This document shows, piece by piece, positions 2,898 through 56,272 of a DNA stretch of 64,000 nucleotides. The DNA is taken from sequence record PV357171.2. One strand, given 5' to 3'. The position numbers and the translations under genes were made by a program. The notes under the pieces are model-generated. The model did no database searches. It worked only from the letters and a program-made list of their open reading frames with translations, and had not been told where the DNA came from. Position 1 is the stretch's first letter. Each line of letters begins with the position of its first letter. The DNA is from a phage.

Positions 2898-2965
2898 CTC
2901 AACTGGATAAGAGTACCGGACCTTTAATCCGTCAGTTCTGGGTTCGAATCCCAGGCAATCCACCA
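2888..2965 (+). tRNA. tRNA, anticodon probably TTT (Lys), isotype uncertain
   Basis: Acceptor GGATTGC/GCAATCC, T-arm CTGGG-TTCGAAT-CCCAG, 3' ACCA; anticodon stem has a top mismatch and C at position 33; 5' end overlaps the upstream CDS. Confidence 0.55.
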
Positions 2966-2983
2966 ATTTCAAGAAAAACTCAG

Positions 2984-3012
2984 TTGCTTGATGCTTAATT
3001 TCTTGTTATAAT
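2984..3012 (+). promoter_or_regulatory. sigma70-type promoter (TTGCTT-N17-TATAAT)
   Basis: Hexamers with 17-bp spacer; followed by palindrome TGATGAGGAGAAATCCTCATCA. Confidence 0.55.
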
Positions 3013-3250
3013 ATTTATATAAATTGATGAGGAGAAATCCTCATCATAGTTCACTAAGGTATTAGCTCGACCTAGGACTGGCTGCCAAAAAGCACGATCC
3101 CTACGATTTGGGAGAAGTTCTAGATTAGTCCACTAGATTCAGCGGCAACTGAATAGTGTATCGGTTTTGCGAGATGACGCGGTTCCTTCCGCTCGAAGCG
3201 AAGGTGCTGTAGTTACGCCGAGCTAATAGCCTTAGTAAACTAAGGAATTT

Positions 3251-45314: not shown

Positions 45315-45800
45315 ATGGATCATAGAACAAGTATTGCACAAGCTCTGGTTGACCGTATATCTAAACAGTTGGACGGTTCTCAACCCGACGAATATTTTAA
45401 TAACCTATATGGAAACGTTTCTCGTCAAACTTATAAATTTGAGGAAATACGAGAGTTTCCTTATGTGGCAGTTCATATCGGAACTGAAACTGGGCAGTAT
45501 CTTCCTTCGGGCCAACAGTGGATGTTTTTAGAACTTCCAATCCTGGTGTACGATAAAGAGAAAACAGACATTCAAGAGCAACTTGAAAAACTCGTAGCGG
45601 ATATAAAAACCGTTATTGACACAGGTGGAAATTTAGAATATACTGTTAGTAAACCTAATGGATCGACCTTCCCATGTGAGGCAACTGATATGATCATTAC
45701 ATCAGTTAGTACAGATGAGGGTCTACTGGCCCCATATGGTTTAGCAGAAATAAATGTAACAGTGAGGTATCAGCCTCCACGTAGGTCACTTCGCAGATAA
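45315..45800 (+). CDS. tail terminator protein, putative
   Basis: 161 aa directly upstream of the tail tube gene. Confidence 0.45.
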   Translation: MDHRTSIAQALVDRISKQLDGSQPDEYFNNLYGNVSRQTYKFEEIREFPYVAVHIGTETGQYLPSGQQWMFLELPILVYDKEKTDIQEQLEKLVADIKTVIDTGGNLEYTVSKPNGSTFPCEATDMIITSVSTDEGLLAPYGLAEINVTVRYQPPRRSLRR

Positions 45801-45826: not shown

Positions 45827-47224
45827 ATGTCTTTACAACTATTACGTAATACTCGAATCTTCGTGTCTACGGTTAAGACTGGTCATAATAAGACCAACAC
45901 GCAAGAGATTCTAGTTCAGGATGATATTTCTTGGGGTCAGGACAGTAACTCAACAGATATTACTGTTAATGAAGCTGGTCCGCGTCCAACTCGTGGTTCT
46001 AAACGTTTTAACGACTCTTTAAACGCGGCTGAGTGGAGTTTCTCTACTTATATCCTGCCATATAAAGATAAAACTACTAACAAACAGATTGTCCCTGACT
46101 ATATGTTATGGCATGCTCTTTCTAGTGGTAAAGCTCTTAACCTAGAAGGTGCTACAGGAGCACATAATAACGAAACCAATTTTATGGTTAACTTTAAAGA
46201 TAACGCGTACCACGAACTGGCAATGCTGCATATCTACATCCTGACTGACAAAGCATGGAGTTACATCGACTCTTGCCAGATCAACCAGGCAGAAGTTAAC
46301 GTTGATATTGAGGATATTGGTCGTGTAACTTGGTCAGGTAATGGTAACCAGCTTATTCCTTTGGATGAGCAACCATTTGACCCTGATACTGTAGGTATTG
46401 ATGATGAAACTTATATGACTATTCAGAGTTCTTATATCAAGAACAAGTTGACTATCCTGAAAATTAAGGATATGGATTCTGATAAGGCATATGATATCCC
46501 TATTACTGGGGGTACTTTCACCATTAATAACAATATTACGTACCTAACCCCGAATATTATGTCTCGTGTTAATATTCCAATTGGTTCTTTTACTGGTGCT
46601 TTTGAATTAACGGGTTCATTAACTGCTTATCTGAATGATAAATCTCTTGGTTCTATGGAGCTGTACAAAGATCTTATCAAGACTCTGAAGGTAGTTAACC
46701 GCTTCGAAATTGCTCTAGTACTTGGTGGTGAATACGATGAAGAACGTCCTGCTGCTATTCTGGTAGCTAAACAAGCACACGTTAATATTCCTACTATTGA
46801 AACTGATGATGTACTTGGTACTTCAGTAGAGTTTAAAGCTATTCCATCTGATCTGGATGCTGGTGATGAAGGTTACTTAGGCTTCTCTAGTAAATATACC
46901 AAAACAACTATTAATAACTTGATTGTTAATGGTGATGGTGCTACTAATGCTGTAACCGCAATTACTGTTAAATCTGCTGGTGATGCTACTACAGTAAACA
47001 ACTCGGCTACTCTTCAAATGAGTGTTGAAGTTACTCCTCCTTCCGCAAAGAATAAGGAAGTTACTTGGGCTATCACCGCCGGTGATGCAGCCACAATTGA
47101 TCCAGAATCTGGCCTATTAACTGCGGACACCACTAAAACTGGTGAAGTAACTGTAGAAGCTACTGCTAAAGATGGTTCTGGAGTTAAAGGTACTAAACAG
47201 ATTACTGTAGCAGCAGGTGGCTAA
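45827..47224 (+). CDS. major tail tube protein (pb6-like) with C-terminal Ig-like domain
   Basis: 465 aa; Thr/Gly-rich Ig-like C-terminus; size matches T5 pb6 as recalled. Confidence 0.65.
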   Translation: MSLQLLRNTRIFVSTVKTGHNKTNTQEILVQDDISWGQDSNSTDITVNEAGPRPTRGSKRFNDSLNAAEWSFSTYILPYKDKTTNKQIVPDYMLWHALSSGKALNLEGATGAHNNETNFMVNFKDNAYHELAMLHIYILTDKAWSYIDSCQINQAEVNVDIEDIGRVTWSGNGNQLIPLDEQPFDPDTVGIDDETYMTIQSSYIKNKLTILKIKDMDSDKAYDIPITGGTFTINNNITYLTPNIMSRVNIPIGSFTGAFELTGSLTAYLNDKSLGSMELYKDLIKTLKVVNRFEIALVLGGEYDEERPAAILVAKQAHVNIPTIETDDVLGTSVEFKAIPSDLDAGDEGYLGFSSKYTKTTINNLIVNGDGATNAVTAITVKSAGDATTVNNSATLQMSVEVTPPSAKNKEVTWAITAGDAATIDPESGLLTADTTKTGEVTVEATAKDGSGVKGTKQITVAAGG

Positions 47225-49042: not shown

Positions 49043-52000
49043 ATGACTGATAAGCTAATACGAGAATTACTAATAGACGTTAAACAGAAGGGGGCAACCC
49101 GTACTGCAAAGTCTATTGAAAACGTATCTGATGCATTAGAGAACGCTGCTGCTGCTTCTGAACTAACAAATGAACAGTTAGGTAAAATGCCCAAAACTCT
49201 ATACTCCATTGAGAGGGCAGCAGATAGAGCAGCGAAAAGTCTTACTAAAATGCAAGCTAGCAGAGGTATGCTTAGTATTACTAAATCTATTAATGATATA
49301 GGAGCTAAGTTAGATGATCTCGCTATTACAATGATTGAAGTAGCAGATAAATTAGAAATCGGATTTGATGGAGTTTCTAGATCTGTTAAAACAATGGGCA
49401 ATGATGTTGCAGCTGCAACAGAGAAAGTTCAAGATAGGCTGTATGATACTAATAGAGCCTTAGGTGGTACAGCTAGAGGTTTTAATGATACTACTGGTGC
49501 CGCTGGTAGAGCTTCTAGAGCTATCGGTAATACCTCTGGCTCAGCACGCGGTGCAACTCGTGATTTCGCGGCAATGGCTAAGATAGGGGGTGGTTTACCT
49601 ATCCTGTATGCTGCAATTGCATCTAATATATTTGTTCTTCAGTCCGCTTTTGAGGGCCTAAAAGTAGGTGATCAATTAAACAGACTGGAACATTTTGGCA
49701 CTATCGTTGGGACTATAACGGGTACACCAGTACAGACGTTAGCTCTGGCACTACAAAACGCTACTAACGGTGCTGTATCCTTTGAAGAAGCTATGAGACA
49801 AGCGTCTTCTGCTTCAGCTTATGGATTTGATAGTAAACAATTAGAACAGTTCGGACTAGTAGCCCGTCGTGCTGCTGCTGTTCTTGGTGTTGACATGACC
49901 GACGCACTTAACCGTGTAATTAAAGGCGTATCTAAGCAAGAAATAGAACTTCTAGACGAACTTGGTGTTACTATTCGCCTTAACGATGCGTATGCAAATT
50001 ATGTTAAACAGCTAAATGCTACCAGTACAGGCATTAAATATACTGTAGATAGCCTGACTACCTACCAGAGACAACAAGCATATGCAAATGAAGTTATAGC
50101 AGAATCTACTAGACGTTTCGGATACCTAGATGATGCTCTTAAGTCAACTTCTTGGGAGCTATTTGCTGCTAATGCTAACTCTGCCCTAAGAAGCCTACAA
50201 CAAAGCGCAGCAACATACTTAACCCCTGTTGTAGACACCATCAATGCTTTCTTATATCAAACTAAATCTTCTCAGATGAGGATTTCCGCAATGGCACGCA
50301 GTGCCTCTGCTAAAACCACTCCTACTGAAAATGTTACGGCTCTCATAGAAAACGCTGTAGGTGCACAAGAAGATCTAGATACTTACCTTAAAGAAAGTGA
50401 TGCTCGTGTTAAGAAAGCTCAAGAGATTAAACAGCAGTTAGATGATCTCAAGGCAAAACAAGCTGTTACTGCTCCAGTAGCTAACGCACTTACTGCTGTG
50501 GGCATTGGAGGCGATGAAAGTAATAAATTAGTAGTACAACTTACTAATGAACTGGCTCGTCAAAACCAAGAAATAGCAGAACGCGCTAAAACCGAAAAAG
50601 TTCTCAAACAAGCAGTGGAAGATACTGGGCAAGCCTTACTGCGTAATAGTAATCTAGCTAAGCAATTAGGAGCCAATATGCAGTATGCTGCCACTGCTAT
50701 TCCTGGAGAGACCGGGGTATTTAAGATTGATCCTAATAATCTTAAAGCGGCTGCAGAGGTACAGAAGAACTATGACCAGCTAAAGAAAAGCTCTAGTGAT
50801 ACTGCAAATAATATAAAAATGGCAGCTACTAACATTACCACTGCCAAAAAAGCATCAGGTGACTTAGTTAGCATTATAAAAGCAGTAGGAGATACTGCTA
50901 AGGTAACAGGGCAAAATACAGATACTCTAGTTAAAAATCTGAATCTAGGCTTTGAAAATCTAGATCAAATGAAGGCTGCGCAGAAAGGTCTATCAGAATA
51001 TGTAACTGCTATGGATAAGAATGAGCAGAATGCACTGGAAGTAGCTAAACGTAAAGACGAGGTTTATAACCAGACTAAAGACAAAGCTAAAGCGGAGGCA
51101 GCAGCTAGAGAGGTGCTACTACGTCAGCAACAGGAACAGCTCACAGCAGCAAAAGCACTACTGGCTGTTAATCCAAACGATCCAGAGGCTCTAAAGCAGG
51201 TAGCTAAGATAGAAACAGAGATTCTTAATACTAAAGCTCAGGGATTTGAGAACGCTAAGAAAACTAAAGATCTGACAGATAAAATTCTTGGTGTAGATCG
51301 TGAGATAGCTCTCCTGAATGACCGCACTATGACGAGTACTCAGTATCGTCTAGCACAATTAAGGCTAGAGCTACAATTAGAGCAGGAAAAAACGGAATTA
51401 TATTCTAAACAAGCGGATGGCCAAGCTAAAGCAGAACAGTCTAGACGTGCCCAAGCACAAATAAGTAGAGAACTGTGGGAAGCAGAGAAACAAGCTACTG
51501 CCTCGCATGTGTCAGCTCTCATGGATGCCTTAGAAGTTAACCAAACTCAGAGAAATGTCACTGGTCAATCCCAGATTCTTACTGAAAGGTTATCCATTCT
51601 GCAACAACAGCTGGAGTTGTCTAAAGGTAATACTGAAGAAGAAATTAAATATCGTAATGAGATTTATAAAACTTCAGCAGCCTTAGAACAGCTTAAAAAG
51701 CAAAGAGAGAGTCAGATGCAGCAACAGGTAGGATCTTCATTAGGTGCTGTGTACACTCCTACAACTGGTCTATCTGGGGCAGATAAAGATTTTGCTGATA
51801 TGCAGAATAAGATGGCTTCTTATGACCAGGCTATTTCTAAGCTGTCTGAGTTAAATTCCGAAGCAACAGCTGTAGGTCAAAGCCTTGGTAATTTAACTAA
51901 TGCTATGATTCATTTCTCACGGGGATCTCTAGATACTACGTCTATGATTGCGGCAGGTATGCAAGCTGTATCTTCCGTAATTCAGTATAGTACTAGCCAG

Positions 52001-52702
52001 CAGGTAAGTGCTATTGATGCAGCTATTGCAGCAGAGCAAAAACGTGATGGTAAATCCGAGGAGTCTAAAGCTAAACTCAAGAAACTGGAAGCGGAAAAGG
52101 TTAAGATCCAGCAGGATGCAGCTAAGAAGCAAATCATTATTCAGACGGCAGTAGCAGTAATGCAAGCGGCAACAGCTGTACCATACCCGTTCTCTATTCC
52201 TTTGATGGTGGCGGCAGGTTTGGCAGGTGCGTTGTCTCTTGCTCAAGCATCTTCTGCATCGAGTATGTCAAGTATTGCTGATTCTGGAGCGGATACAACA
52301 AGTTATTTAACCTTAGGAGAGCGTCAAAAGAATATAGATGTGTCCATGTCTGCTAATGCAGGTGAACTATCTTATATCCGAGGCGATAAAGGAATAGGCG
52401 GTGCTAACTCTTTCGTTCCTCGTGCTGAGGGTGGTAATATGTACCCAGGGGTTAGTTACCAAATGGGTGAACATGGTACAGAAGTAGTTACCCCTATGGT
52501 TCCTATGAAAGCTACACCTAATGATGAGCTAAAAACCTCATCTAACTCAACTTCAGGAAGACCTATCATCTTGAATATTAGTGCTATGGATGCTGCAAGT
52601 TTCAGAGAGTTTGCTTCTAGTAATAGTAGTGCTCTAAGAGACGCAGTAGAATTAGCTCTGAATGAGAACGGTGCTAGTCTGAAAACATTAGGAAATTCTT
52701 AA
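49043..52702 (+). CDS. tail tape measure protein (pb2-like)
   Basis: 1219 aa, long coiled-coil Ala/Gln-rich protein; length equals T5 pb2 as recalled. Confidence 0.85.
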   Translation: MTDKLIRELLIDVKQKGATRTAKSIENVSDALENAAAASELTNEQLGKMPKTLYSIERAADRAAKSLTKMQASRGMLSITKSINDIGAKLDDLAITMIEVADKLEIGFDGVSRSVKTMGNDVAAATEKVQDRLYDTNRALGGTARGFNDTTGAAGRASRAIGNTSGSARGATRDFAAMAKIGGGLPILYAAIASNIFVLQSAFEGLKVGDQLNRLEHFGTIVGTITGTPVQTLALALQNATNGAVSFEEAMRQASSASAYGFDSKQLEQFGLVARRAAAVLGVDMTDALNRVIKGVSKQEIELLDELGVTIRLNDAYANYVKQLNATSTGIKYTVDSLTTYQRQQAYANEVIAESTRRFGYLDDALKSTSWELFAANANSALRSLQQSAATYLTPVVDTINAFLYQTKSSQMRISAMARSASAKTTPTENVTALIENAVGAQEDLDTYLKESDARVKKAQEIKQQLDDLKAKQAVTAPVANALTAVGIGGDESNKLVVQLTNELARQNQEIAERAKTEKVLKQAVEDTGQALLRNSNLAKQLGANMQYAATAIPGETGVFKIDPNNLKAAAEVQKNYDQLKKSSSDTANNIKMAATNITTAKKASGDLVSIIKAVGDTAKVTGQNTDTLVKNLNLGFENLDQMKAAQKGLSEYVTAMDKNEQNALEVAKRKDEVYNQTKDKAKAEAAAREVLLRQQQEQLTAAKALLAVNPNDPEALKQVAKIETEILNTKAQGFENAKKTKDLTDKILGVDREIALLNDRTMTSTQYRLAQLRLELQLEQEKTELYSKQADGQAKAEQSRRAQAQISRELWEAEKQATASHVSALMDALEVNQTQRNVTGQSQILTERLSILQQQLELSKGNTEEEIKYRNEIYKTSAALEQLKKQRESQMQQQVGSSLGAVYTPTTGLSGADKDFADMQNKMASYDQAISKLSELNSEATAVGQSLGNLTNAMIHFSRGSLDTTSMIAAGMQAVSSVIQYSTSQQVSAIDAAIAAEQKRDGKSEESKAKLKKLEAEKVKIQQDAAKKQIIIQTAVAVMQAATAVPYPFSIPLMVAAGLAGALSLAQASSASSMSSIADSGADTTSYLTLGERQKNIDVSMSANAGELSYIRGDKGIGGANSFVPRAEGGNMYPGVSYQMGEHGTEVVTPMVPMKATPNDELKTSSNSTSGRPIILNISAMDAASFREFASSNSSALRDAVELALNENGASLKTLGNS

Positions 52703-52707
52703 AACTG

Positions 52708-52735
52708 GAGGAGGACTTTGAGTCCTCCTTTTCTT
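52708..52735 (+). terminator. terminator-like hairpin
   Basis: GGAGGACT-ttg-AGTCCTCC followed by TTTTCTTTAT. Confidence 0.5.
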
Positions 52736-52755
52736 TATGGAAAAATAAAAATTTC

Positions 52756-52784
52756 TTGATAAAATTTTCTAATACTATTATAAT
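52756..52784 (+). promoter_or_regulatory. sigma70-type promoter (TTGATA-N17-TATAAT)
   Basis: Hexamers with 17-bp spacer; followed by ATTAAAGAGGAGAAATTAACTATG leader. Confidence 0.5.
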
Positions 52785-52811
52785 ATTGTTATTAAAGAGG
52801 AGAAATTAACT

Positions 52812-53426
52812 ATGAGATTACCAGACCCATACACGAATCCAGAACTTTCAGGCTTAGGATTCGAAAGTGTTAACCTGATTGATAATGACCCAGTAATTCG
52901 TGATGAGTTACCAAATGGTAAAGTTAACGAAGTTAAGGTATCTGCTCAATACTGGGGTATAAATATTTCTTATCCAGAATTATTTCCAGATGAATATAGT
53001 GTTCTAGATGCTTTTATTCTAGAATACAAAAGGACTGGTGGTTATATAGATGTTATATTACCCCAATACGAAGCTTTTAGAGTTAGAGGTAATACTAGTC
53101 TAGTAAATATACCTGCTGGACAGAAGGGTTCTAATATAACTATGGATACAAAAGGGCTTCTTACAGGTACTCCAAAACCGGGGGATCTATTTAAGCTGTC
53201 TAGCCACCCAAAAGTATATAAAATAACATCATTTAACAAATCAGGTAATACATGGTCTATAAACTTATACCCTGATTTATTTATAACTACTACTGGAGCG
53301 GAGAAGCCAGTATTCAATGGAATACTATTTAGAACAAAACTCATGAATGGTGATGCTTTTGGATCTACACTAAATAATAACGGAACATACTCCAACATCT
53401 CATTAAATTTACGGGAAAGTCTATGA
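52812..53426 (+). CDS. distal tail protein (pb9-like)
   Basis: 204 aa directly after the tape measure gene; strong AAAGAGGAG Shine-Dalgarno. Confidence 0.6.
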   Translation: MRLPDPYTNPELSGLGFESVNLIDNDPVIRDELPNGKVNEVKVSAQYWGINISYPELFPDEYSVLDAFILEYKRTGGYIDVILPQYEAFRVRGNTSLVNIPAGQKGSNITMDTKGLLTGTPKPGDLFKLSSHPKVYKITSFNKSGNTWSINLYPDLFITTTGAEKPVFNGILFRTKLMNGDAFGSTLNNNGTYSNISLNLRESL

Positions 53427-56272
53427 AAAAAATATTAGATAGTGCTAGAAACTACTTAAAAAATAATAGCAGAATAAAAACTGCTAGTCTAATTTCTCTA
53501 GAATTACCCGGCTCTACTGGTACTAGTACTGCTTTTATTTACTTAACTGACTATTTTAGAGATGTACTATATAATGGTATTTTGTACCAGGCCGGTAAAG
53601 TTAAGTCTATTAGCACACATAAACAAAATAGAGATTTATCTATTGGCAGCCTATCTTTTACTATTACAGGTACAGCGCAGGATGAAGTACTGAAATTAGT
53701 GCAGAATGGTGTGTCTTTTTTAGATAGATTAGTATCAATTCACCAAGCAATTATTACAGAAGATGGTTCTATTTTACCTGTAGACCCAGACACAAATGGG
53801 CCTTTATTATACTTTAGAGGTAGAATTACTGGTGGAGGTATTAAGGATAATATTAGCACTTCGGGAGTTGGAACCTCCACAATTACTTGGAATTGTTCTA
53901 ACCAATTCTATGATTTTGATAGGGTTAATGGTAGATTTACTGATGATGCTTCTCATAGAGGGCTTGAAGTTGTAGCAGGGCAATTAGTTCCATCTAACGG
54001 GGCTAAAAGACTTGAGTATCAAGAAGATTATGGGTTCTTTCATGCCAATAAAAGTATCTCTATTCTAGCAAAATATCAGGTACAGGAAGAAAGATACAAG
54101 CTAAAGTCTAAGAAAAAGCTATTTGGCCTATCTAGAAGTTATAGTCTTAAAAAGTATTATGAGACTGTTACTAAAGAAGTAGATATAGATTTTAACCTTG
54201 CTGCTAAGTATCTACCAGTAGTTTATGGTGTACAGAAAATACCGGGAATACCTATTTTTGCGGATACGGAATTACACAATCCTAATATAGTTTACGTAGT
54301 ATATGCTTTTGCTGAAGGAGAGATAGACGGTTTTCTTGACTTTTCCTTTGGGGATAACCCTATGATTTGTATGGACTCTAATGATAGCTCTGCTAGAACC
54401 TGTTTCGGTGTTAAAAAAGTAGCCGGAGACACCATGCAAAGAATAGCATCAGGAACACCTTCTAGTAGTCCTTCCGTGCATGGGCAGGAGTATAAGTATA
54501 ATGATGGGAATGGTGACATAAGAATTTGGACGTATCATGGAAAACCTGACCAAACGGCTTCTGAAGTACTAGTAGATATAGCTAAAGAACGTGGGTTCTA
54601 CCTTCAGAATATGAATGGCAATGGACCGGAGTACTGGGATGCTAGGTATAAACTACTAGATACTGCATACGCAGTGGTGCGCTTCACTATTAATGAAAAT
54701 AGGACTGAGATTCCTGAAGTTAGTGCTGAAATTCAAGGTAAAAAAGTAAAAGTCTATCATTCTGATGGTAGAGTAACTGCTAATAGTACTAGTTTAAATG
54801 GTATTTGGCAAACACTTGATTACTTAACCTCTGATAGATATGGCGCTAATATTACCATTGATCAGTTCCCCCTTCAGCAATTAATACAGGAAGCAGATAT
54901 TTTAGATATTATAGATGAATCCTATCAGGTATCTTGGCAGCCATATTGGAGATACGTTGGGTGGACTGATCCACTAGCAGAAAATAGACAAATAGTACAA
55001 ATGAATACTATTCTGGATACATCTGAATCAGTATTTAAAAATGTGCAAGGTTTGTTAGAGTCCTATGGTGGGGCTATTAACAATTTATCTGGCCAGTATA
55101 GGGTTACTGTAGAAAAATACTCTAATACTCCATTAGAGATTAATTTTCTAGACACTTACGGTGATTTGGAGCTATCTGATACTACCGGTAGAAATAAATT
55201 CAACTCAGTTCAAGCATCTATTGTGGATCCCGCCCTTAGCTGGAAAACTAATTCCATTACCTTCTATAATTCCAAGTATAAGGAACAGGACAAAAACCTG
55301 GATAAAAAACTACAATTATCTTTTGCAAATATAACTAACTACTATACTGCTAGAAGTTTTGCAGACAGAGAACTTAAGAAATCTAGGTATTCTAGAACCC
55401 TCTCATTCTCTTTACCATATCAATTCATTGGTATTGAGCCTAACGATGCTATTGCATTTACATACGACCGTTACGGATGGGATAAGAAGTACTTTTTAGT
55501 AGATGAAGTAGAAAACTCTAGAGAAGGAAAGATAAATGTTACTCTACAGGAATATGGTGAAGATGTATTTATCAACTCTGATCAAGTAGATAATAGTGGT
55601 AATGATATACCAGATATTAGTAACAACGTTCTTCCTCCTAGGGATTTTAAATATACTCCTACACCCGGTGGTTTAGTTGGTTCTATAGGAAAAAATGGTG
55701 AGTTATCTTGGCTTCCAAGCTTAACTAATAACGTAGTTTATTATTCTATCGTACATTCCGGTCATGCTGAGCCTTATACTGTGCAGCAACTAGAAACAAA
55801 TCCCAATGAACGCATGATCCAAGAGATAATTGGAGAGCCTGCAGGCTTAGCGATATTTGAAATAAGAGCTGTGGATATAAACGGTAGAAGAAGTTCTCCA
55901 GTAACATTATCTATAGAACTTAACTCTGCTAAAAACCTAAGTGTAGTATCTAATTTTAGGGTAACTAATACGGCTTCCGGGGATGTAACTGAATTTGTAG
56001 GCCCAGATGTAAAACTAGCTTGGGATAGGATACCGGAAGAAGATATAATAGAAAGTATATTCTATACTCTGGAAATCTATGATTCCCAGAATAGAATGCT
56101 AAGAAGTGTACGTATTGAAAATCAGTATACTTATGACTATTTATTAATGTATAATAAGGCAGATTTTGCTCTTCATAACAGTGATGCTCTAGGAATCAAT
56201 AGAAAACTATATTTTCGTATTAGAGCAGAAGGAGATGATGGGGAACAGTCTGTGGAGTGGGCATCCATTTAA
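53423..56272 (+). CDS. baseplate hub / tail tip protein (pb3-like)
   Basis: 949 aa; size and position match T5 pb3 as recalled. Confidence 0.65.
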   Translation: MKKILDSARNYLKNNSRIKTASLISLELPGSTGTSTAFIYLTDYFRDVLYNGILYQAGKVKSISTHKQNRDLSIGSLSFTITGTAQDEVLKLVQNGVSFLDRLVSIHQAIITEDGSILPVDPDTNGPLLYFRGRITGGGIKDNISTSGVGTSTITWNCSNQFYDFDRVNGRFTDDASHRGLEVVAGQLVPSNGAKRLEYQEDYGFFHANKSISILAKYQVQEERYKLKSKKKLFGLSRSYSLKKYYETVTKEVDIDFNLAAKYLPVVYGVQKIPGIPIFADTELHNPNIVYVVYAFAEGEIDGFLDFSFGDNPMICMDSNDSSARTCFGVKKVAGDTMQRIASGTPSSSPSVHGQEYKYNDGNGDIRIWTYHGKPDQTASEVLVDIAKERGFYLQNMNGNGPEYWDARYKLLDTAYAVVRFTINENRTEIPEVSAEIQGKKVKVYHSDGRVTANSTSLNGIWQTLDYLTSDRYGANITIDQFPLQQLIQEADILDIIDESYQVSWQPYWRYVGWTDPLAENRQIVQMNTILDTSESVFKNVQGLLESYGGAINNLSGQYRVTVEKYSNTPLEINFLDTYGDLELSDTTGRNKFNSVQASIVDPALSWKTNSITFYNSKYKEQDKNLDKKLQLSFANITNYYTARSFADRELKKSRYSRTLSFSLPYQFIGIEPNDAIAFTYDRYGWDKKYFLVDEVENSREGKINVTLQEYGEDVFINSDQVDNSGNDIPDISNNVLPPRDFKYTPTPGGLVGSIGKNGELSWLPSLTNNVVYYSIVHSGHAEPYTVQQLETNPNERMIQEIIGEPAGLAIFEIRAVDINGRRSSPVTLSIELNSAKNLSVVSNFRVTNTASGDVTEFVGPDVKLAWDRIPEEDIIESIFYTLEIYDSQNRMLRSVRIENQYTYDYLLMYNKADFALHNSDALGINRKLYFRIRAEGDDGEQSVEWASI

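Follow-up and report, generated by a model that had tools for sequence, protein, structure and literature searches.

The RBSII leader of pQE expression vectors is most likely a copy of the natural P-G25 leader of the distal tail gene pb9 in T5-like phages

We analyzed a stretch of 64,000 nucleotides (hereafter the window) from a T5-like phage that is different from T5 itself, focusing on the short region between two of its tail genes. As listed in Table 1, the gene for pb2, the tape measure or pore-forming tail tip protein, is followed on the same strand by a hairpin terminator, a sigma-70 promoter and a short leader, downstream of which lie the genes for the distal tail protein pb9 and the baseplate hub protein pb3. 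This order of ORFs and terminator is that of the features in the T5 reference genome (NC_005859), in which promoter P-G25 sits between the pb2 (D18-19) terminator and the distal tail gene, and a putative rho-independent terminator is annotated at the equivalent place in both NC_005859 and AY303686, a second T5 record. The initial annotation had spoken of a pb9-like gene, an assignment that is borne out by both domain and structure searches. The 204-residue ORF opening at the ATG at 52812 contains the Pfam pb9 domains PF21425, PF21430, and PF21424, all far above their cut-offs (the three E-values being 8.5e-46, 1.1e-39, and 1.3e-18), and matches the PDB chains of T5 pb9 (4jmq and 7qg9, E 4e-114 to 5e-114), its best PDB match being distal tail protein chain 8hqz_H (E 5e-132). 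The start codon of pb3 overlaps the stop codon of pb9 as ATGA (53423..53426, + strand), an arrangement suggesting that translation of the hub protein is coupled to that of the pb9 cistron. A scan of 52400..53200 against Rfam returned a sole match, to a ctRNA family across terminator and promoter, which we rejected as a chance hit (E 0.47, its 24 bits falling short of the gathering score of 45).

Table 1. Features at the pb2-pb9 junction and in the adjoining genes (positions are those of the window)
Feature	Position	Strand	Basis or detail
Tape measure / pore-forming tail tip protein pb2, 1219 aa, upstream	49043..52702	+	ORF; annotation in T5 and related phages
Intrinsic terminator hairpin, 11 pairs, loop of 3, then T-run	52707..52731	+	Terminator scan
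A/T-rich block AAAAATAAAAATTT, directly upstream of -35	52741..52754	+	Direct reading; invariant in 29 related sequences
Sigma-70 promoter P-G25 core	52756..52784	+	-35 TTGATA 52756..52761, 17-bp spacer, -10 TATAAT 52779..52784
Predicted 21-nt 5' untranslated leader ATTAAAGAGGAGAAATTAACT, equal to RBSII of pDS/pQE	52791..52811	+	Exact match to two pQE vector contigs (L018, L019) and to T5
Shine-Dalgarno GAGGAG (core AGGAG), 9 nt before ATG	52797..52802	+	Duplex energy; conservation
Distal tail protein pb9 (Dit), 204 aa	52812..53426	+	ORF; Pfam pb9 domains; PDB pb9 chains
Baseplate hub protein pb3, 949 aa, downstream	53423..56272	+	ORF; T5 annotation D16 / tail protein Pb3

The promoter core found by our promoter scan, TTGATA-17-TATAAT, agrees with the sigma-70 consensus at 11 of 12 positions and has the hexamers and 17-bp spacing of that class, while the A/T-rich block that precedes it may act like an UP element. 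In NC_005859, the feature labeled "promoter P-G 25" consists of 75 bases that end one base before the ATG of pb9, with a terminator just upstream, and over this entire feature the window departs from T5 at a single spacer base, having a T where T5 has C, the hexamers and the leader being identical. The promoter of T5 thus has the same position between pb2 terminator and pb9, the same -35, the same spacer length, and the same -10 as that of the window, although the two pb9 proteins are only 82% identical and the terminator loop differs by two bases. From its spacing, 7 nt after the -10 hexamer, we infer that A52791 would be the transcription start. This base is position 56 of the 75-nt feature, which Gentz and Bujard reportedly numbered from -55 to +20 in 1985, and on that numbering A52791 would indeed be +1. 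P-G25 has been identified by primer extension as a late promoter in T5 infection (PMC7472727).

The initial annotation held that the leader of pb9, including the first two codons, is identical to RBSII, the ribosome-binding site of the pDS/pQE expression vectors, and it proposed an exact comparison with vector and T5 sequences; it had placed the leader at 52756..52814, a range whose first position is the start of the -35 TTGATA and whose last is the G of the ATG, its quoted string extending three bases further. We took the vector sequence from public collections, which were searched with the first 24 bases of the 27-mer ATTAAAGAGGAGAAATTAACTATGAGA. Bacterial genome assemblies contain this 24-base string three times, in two contigs of Cuspidothrix and one of Bradyrhizobium. 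The two Cuspidothrix contigs, from the C. issatschenkoi CHARLIE-1 assembly, are pQE vector sequence encoding MRGS-His6 (NZ_PGEM01000173, here L018, bases 96-252; NZ_PGEM01000014, here L019, bases 2930-3160), the second continuing into a reading frame that we take to be DHFR, and they look like laboratory vector contamination of a cyanobacterial assembly. Both read ...CACACAGAATTC ATTAAAGAGGAGAAATTAACT ATG AGA GGA TCG CAT CAC..., in a layout that consists of a T5/lac operator promoter, GAATTC, ATTAAAGAGGAGAAATTAACT, ATG AGA GGA TCG, six His codons, and GGATCC. In the Bradyrhizobium sp. SSBR45G contig (NZ_BSCT01000004, 360 kb, bases 2900-3020), GAATTC-RBSII-ATG is fused to a GFP-type gene (GTGAGCAAGGGCGAGGAG...), which is an engineered tag in the sequenced strain. 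The only match in PLSDB was the pQE-derived Lpp-OmpA plasmid NZ_CP097216, which confirms the order GAATTC-RBSII-ATG but has AAA as codon 2, and complete genomes of E. coli returned only this plasmid and partial matches to the promoter and operators.

The 27-mer, present in the window as a single copy at 52791..52817 (+ strand), is identical at 27 of 27 positions to bases 196-222 of L018 and 3031-3057 of L019, so that no mismatch separates phage leader, Shine-Dalgarno sequence, spacer, start codon, and codon 2 from their vector counterparts; the RBSII sequence ATTAAAGAGGAGAAATTAACTATG(AGA) agrees equally well with published pQE30 sequences, and pQE30 derivatives have the same upstream primer sequence, MRGS being ATGAGAGGATCG in pQE30 (PMC11880969). 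The same 27-mer stands at the start of pb9 in NC_005859, so both comparisons came out as the initial annotation had anticipated. Twenty-seven nucleotides is also the maximal exact match, since the preceding base is T in the phage versus C, the end of GAATTC, in the vector, and the following base is T versus G. Its last six bases (52812..52817) are codons 1 and 2 of pb9, ATG AGA, and Met-Arg is thus common to pb9 (MRLPDP...) and vector, with divergence at codon 3 (TTA in the phage, GGA in the vector). The identity is therefore bounded on its left by an EcoRI site and on its right by a GGATC(G/C) cloning site. Elsewhere in the window no further copy of the leader motif was found, a lone match with three mismatches being at chance level.

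A 27-nt identity with a widely used plasmid could in principle mean that the window is contaminated or chimeric, its 27-mer coming from a pQE-type plasmid and not from a phage, and vector contigs carrying RBSII do occur in public assemblies, as the Cuspidothrix case illustrates. However, in the vector RBSII lies between EcoRI and GGATC(G/C), follows a promoter built from PN25 and lac operators, and drives MRGS-His6 fusions, and the window has neither the EcoRI site nor GGATCG-His6, lac operators, or PN25; in the phage the 27-mer instead follows P-G25, its native promoter, and serves pb9, its flanks being contiguous phage sequence. A search of the window for PN25, the promoter part of the vector, gave no match, which fits the origin of PN25 in the pre-early region of T5. 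With this vector context absent, the window contains a natural counterpart of RBSII and not a vector fragment. Moreover, T5 shares the arrangement, as do over 100 independent phage genomes with identities of at least 99%, and this continuity of homology across both boundaries refutes contamination, to which we assign a vanishingly small probability.

RBSII is today described as synthetic (PMC8666340), as the initial annotation had remarked, and this routine label, together with generic features such as a good Shine-Dalgarno sequence, an A-rich spacer, and an ATG, would be in keeping with a site designed from consensus rules that came to equal a phage leader by accident. Four observations make such a coincidence extremely improbable. 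By our own arithmetic, the chance expectation for a 27-nt identity in the window is about 128000/4^27, or 7e-12, and none of 100 dinucleotide-preserving shuffles contained the 27-mer even when up to two mismatches were tolerated. The identity extends over the non-consensus spacer AAATTAACT and over codon 2, AGA. The promoter of the vector is likewise derived from T5. Finally, the first base of the match is the predicted +1 of a promoter published by two authors of the RBSII paper: in AY303686, promoter G25 is attributed to Gentz and Bujard 1985 (accession M11609), and for RBSII PMC3333853 refers to Bujard, Gentz et al. 1987 (Methods Enzymol 155:416; its reference 52). This shared authorship supports a T5 origin of RBSII, as does the span of the identity, from the predicted +1 to the restriction sites of the vector, which supports the copying of a natural leader. 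RBSII is hence most likely a copy of the predicted 21-nt P-G25 leader plus codons 1 and 2 of pb9, and the natural T5-family origin proposed in the initial annotation is upheld by the T5 27-mer, the P-G 25 annotation, the shared authors, and the limits of the identity.

We infer that the copying ran from phage to vector. A literature search for a text naming both RBSII and PG25 found none. Roche patents on the pDS/pQE vectors, which would give the explicit statement of derivation, are said to state that the RBSII sites stem from the PG25 ribosomal binding site of E. coli phage T5 and were made via DNA synthesis, reportedly naming the Heidelberg thesis of R. Gentz (1984) as the source of PG25. 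RBSII would then be a chemically synthesized copy, from the predicted +1 through codon 2, set between EcoRI and BamHI-type sites. The natural T5 origin is accordingly not new, as it was, by these patents, already known to the makers of RBSII, and the T5 reference carries an annotation of the promoter. As a whole, a natural P-G25 control region of which RBSII is a synthesized copy is the explanation that we favor with high confidence.

How strongly the region is conserved was determined in a set of 29 distinct sequences, consisting of the window and 28 IMG/VR loci whose pb9 is 80-100% identical. Nucleotide diversity in this set is 0.30-0.33 at third and 0.04-0.05 at second codon positions, 0.035 in the terminator, 0.016 in the upstream block through the -10 (the promoter), and 0.000 over the 20 bases from the Shine-Dalgarno region to the ATG (52795..52814). 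The -35 and -10 hexamers are invariant, and variable bases are confined to the six that follow the -10 and the first bases of the leader, which occur in three forms: ATTGTTATTAAAG, AATTGTATCTAAG, and a deletion of one A. Epseptimavirus phages have the leader without one A. On a broader scale, a 901-base query (52600..53500) matched 444 phage records, the best at 99.4% identity. About 442 GenBank phage records match the 131-nt control region (52700..52830) at 90% identity or more, and in 278 of them the flanking 901 nt fall to 60-80% identity. The unit formed by terminator, promoter, and leader is thus conserved far better across T5-like phages than the genes that flank it. The exact RBSII 24-mer also occurs in 14 IMG/VR contigs, each of 108-121 kb. 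In T5-like phages of Klebsiella, the layout of terminator, promoter, GAGGAG, and ATG AGA is kept with a different spacer (AAAACAAAAC). In one of these, vB_KpnS_Boggle_ER46 (L051, 699-794), a 31-codon "hypothetical protein" is annotated over the homologous terminator and promoter and ends within the start of pb9; the annotation pipeline most likely called it in error.

An invariant leader of 20-23 nt might do more than bind ribosomes, serving as the site of a phage or host factor or as a translational enhancer for late tail genes. The zero diversity between Shine-Dalgarno and ATG, against about 0.30 at synonymous sites, speaks for such a role, as may a resemblance of the spacer UUAACU to the first bases of UUAACUUUA, the "epsilon" enhancer of T7 gene 10. 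However, the intergenic region as a whole is about as conserved as the leader, which is therefore not special within it; the Klebsiella phages have changed the spacer while keeping Shine-Dalgarno, ATG AGA, and promoter layout; and in vectors RBSII functions ahead of unrelated genes, with no phage factor present. Nothing requires an extra regulatory role of the leader, and we regard it as very unlikely.

The initial annotation also took the leader to mark an exceptionally well translated gene. The site has what canonical Shine-Dalgarno-led initiation calls for, namely complementarity to 16S rRNA, a 9-nt distance to the ATG, and an accessible context. Its duplex with the 3' end of 16S rRNA (-9.1 kcal/mol) ranks 11th among 99 crudely called ORFs of the window. 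Folded together with 49 coding nucleotides, the leader has a minimum free energy of -1.4 kcal/mol versus -6.4 +/- 2.2 kcal/mol in shuffles (z = +2.3), the region being less structured than 198 of 200 of them. When Shine-Dalgarno energy minus local folding energy is used as the score, each of the other ORFs being given its best-Shine-Dalgarno start, the pb9 start comes first of the 99, both the ORF set and the score being crude. This rough proxy supports an efficient pb9 initiation region, from which a high translation rate of pb9 during infection would follow. The stronger wording of the initial annotation is an extrapolation from this crude in-silico score. When five ribosome-binding sites were compared directly in a cell-free system (PMC3333853), RBSII was not one of the two strongest, and pb9 is present at six chains per solved PDB entry (30 chains in five entries), so that very high translation is not obviously required. 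The benefit of high output may instead lie in loading ribosomes onto a long late transcript and in coupling to pb3, rather than in the copy number of pb9.

Two independent T5-like genomes in the databases are anomalous at this very place. In Salmonella phage SP3 (MG387042 / NC_048001; IMG/VR copy L024, 592-606), exactly ATTAAAGAGGAGAAATTAACTATG (24 nt) is missing, and in Escherichia phage BUCT632 (PQ488502) the same stretch and one further base are absent (25 nt). The gap lies near 1570-1575 of the corresponding loci (L049 and L048), is homologous to 52791..52815 of the window, and has its left edge at the first base of RBSII, that is, of the vector identity; the pb9 annotation of either record begins only at an internal Met and covers 94 aa (285 nt). 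Since the tail gene is presumably essential, losing both its Shine-Dalgarno sequence and its start codon should be non-viable; this, together with a left edge placed exactly where the vector match opens, is why the gap is probably a vector-trimming artefact of read cleaning or submission and not biology. Two bolder readings can be added. In one, the stretch from Shine-Dalgarno to ATG, which is invariant across Tequintavirus and Epseptimavirus, would be kept so by more than ribosome binding, for instance by a phage-encoded late translational regulator or an rRNA-pairing enhancer in the spacer UUAACU; in the other, more practical one, the 27-mer would trigger vector screening that leads to its excision and to a broken annotation of the distal tail gene. 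As a set, these bolder readings are unlikely.

The reuse of a T5-like late promoter region in biotechnology has parallels, within T5 as well as outside it. P-J5 is a second late promoter of T5 that became a biotechnological part, differing from P-G25 in its sequence and downstream gene, and its leader is not in pQE. Its core, which we take to be TTGACACAGGTGGAAATTTAGAATATACT, occurs exactly in the window at 45616..45644 (+ strand); the 465-aa ORF of the major tail protein opens at 45827, about 180 bases further downstream, and P-J 5 is annotated at the homologous place in NC_005859. It has been reused as a strong constitutive promoter, for instance in Cupriavidus necator (PMC8570001). The leader of T7 gene 10, known as the g10 site of pET, is likewise the leader of a phage late structural gene adopted for high expression, A/U-rich and with a strong Shine-Dalgarno sequence, but it is unrelated in sequence, longer, and stronger than RBSII when the two are compared side by side in cell-free reactions (PMC3333853).

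The stretch 52707..52817 is an intergenic control region between pb2 and pb9, composed of terminator, P-G25, and leader and closing with the pb9 codons ATG AGA. The terminator is expected to end the pb2 transcript just before the promoter, at which host RNA polymerase would initiate, most likely at about A52791. Ribosomes would load on the A/U-rich, essentially unstructured leader of 21 nt and translate pb9, and some would probably continue from pb9 to pb3 through the ATGA overlap.

These findings tidy up a piece of vector history, as the "synthetic" RBSII is most likely the natural, predicted leader of T5 P-G25 together with two codons of pb9. If RBSII was copied from the T5 leader, the Arg of the MRGS-His6 tag of the vectors would come from codon 2 of pb9, and hence from a phage tail protein. 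For sequence databases, a genuine 27-nt vector match in T5-like genomes means that vector screening can flag this match or strip it out; the SP3 and BUCT632 records appear to have lost exactly this stretch, along with the beginning of an essential gene, and this probable artefact is the only mildly new item. For the phages themselves, the region is a compact and strongly conserved unit of terminator, promoter, and leader, whose predicted initiation ranks, on a crude score, first among 99 ORFs in 64 kb.
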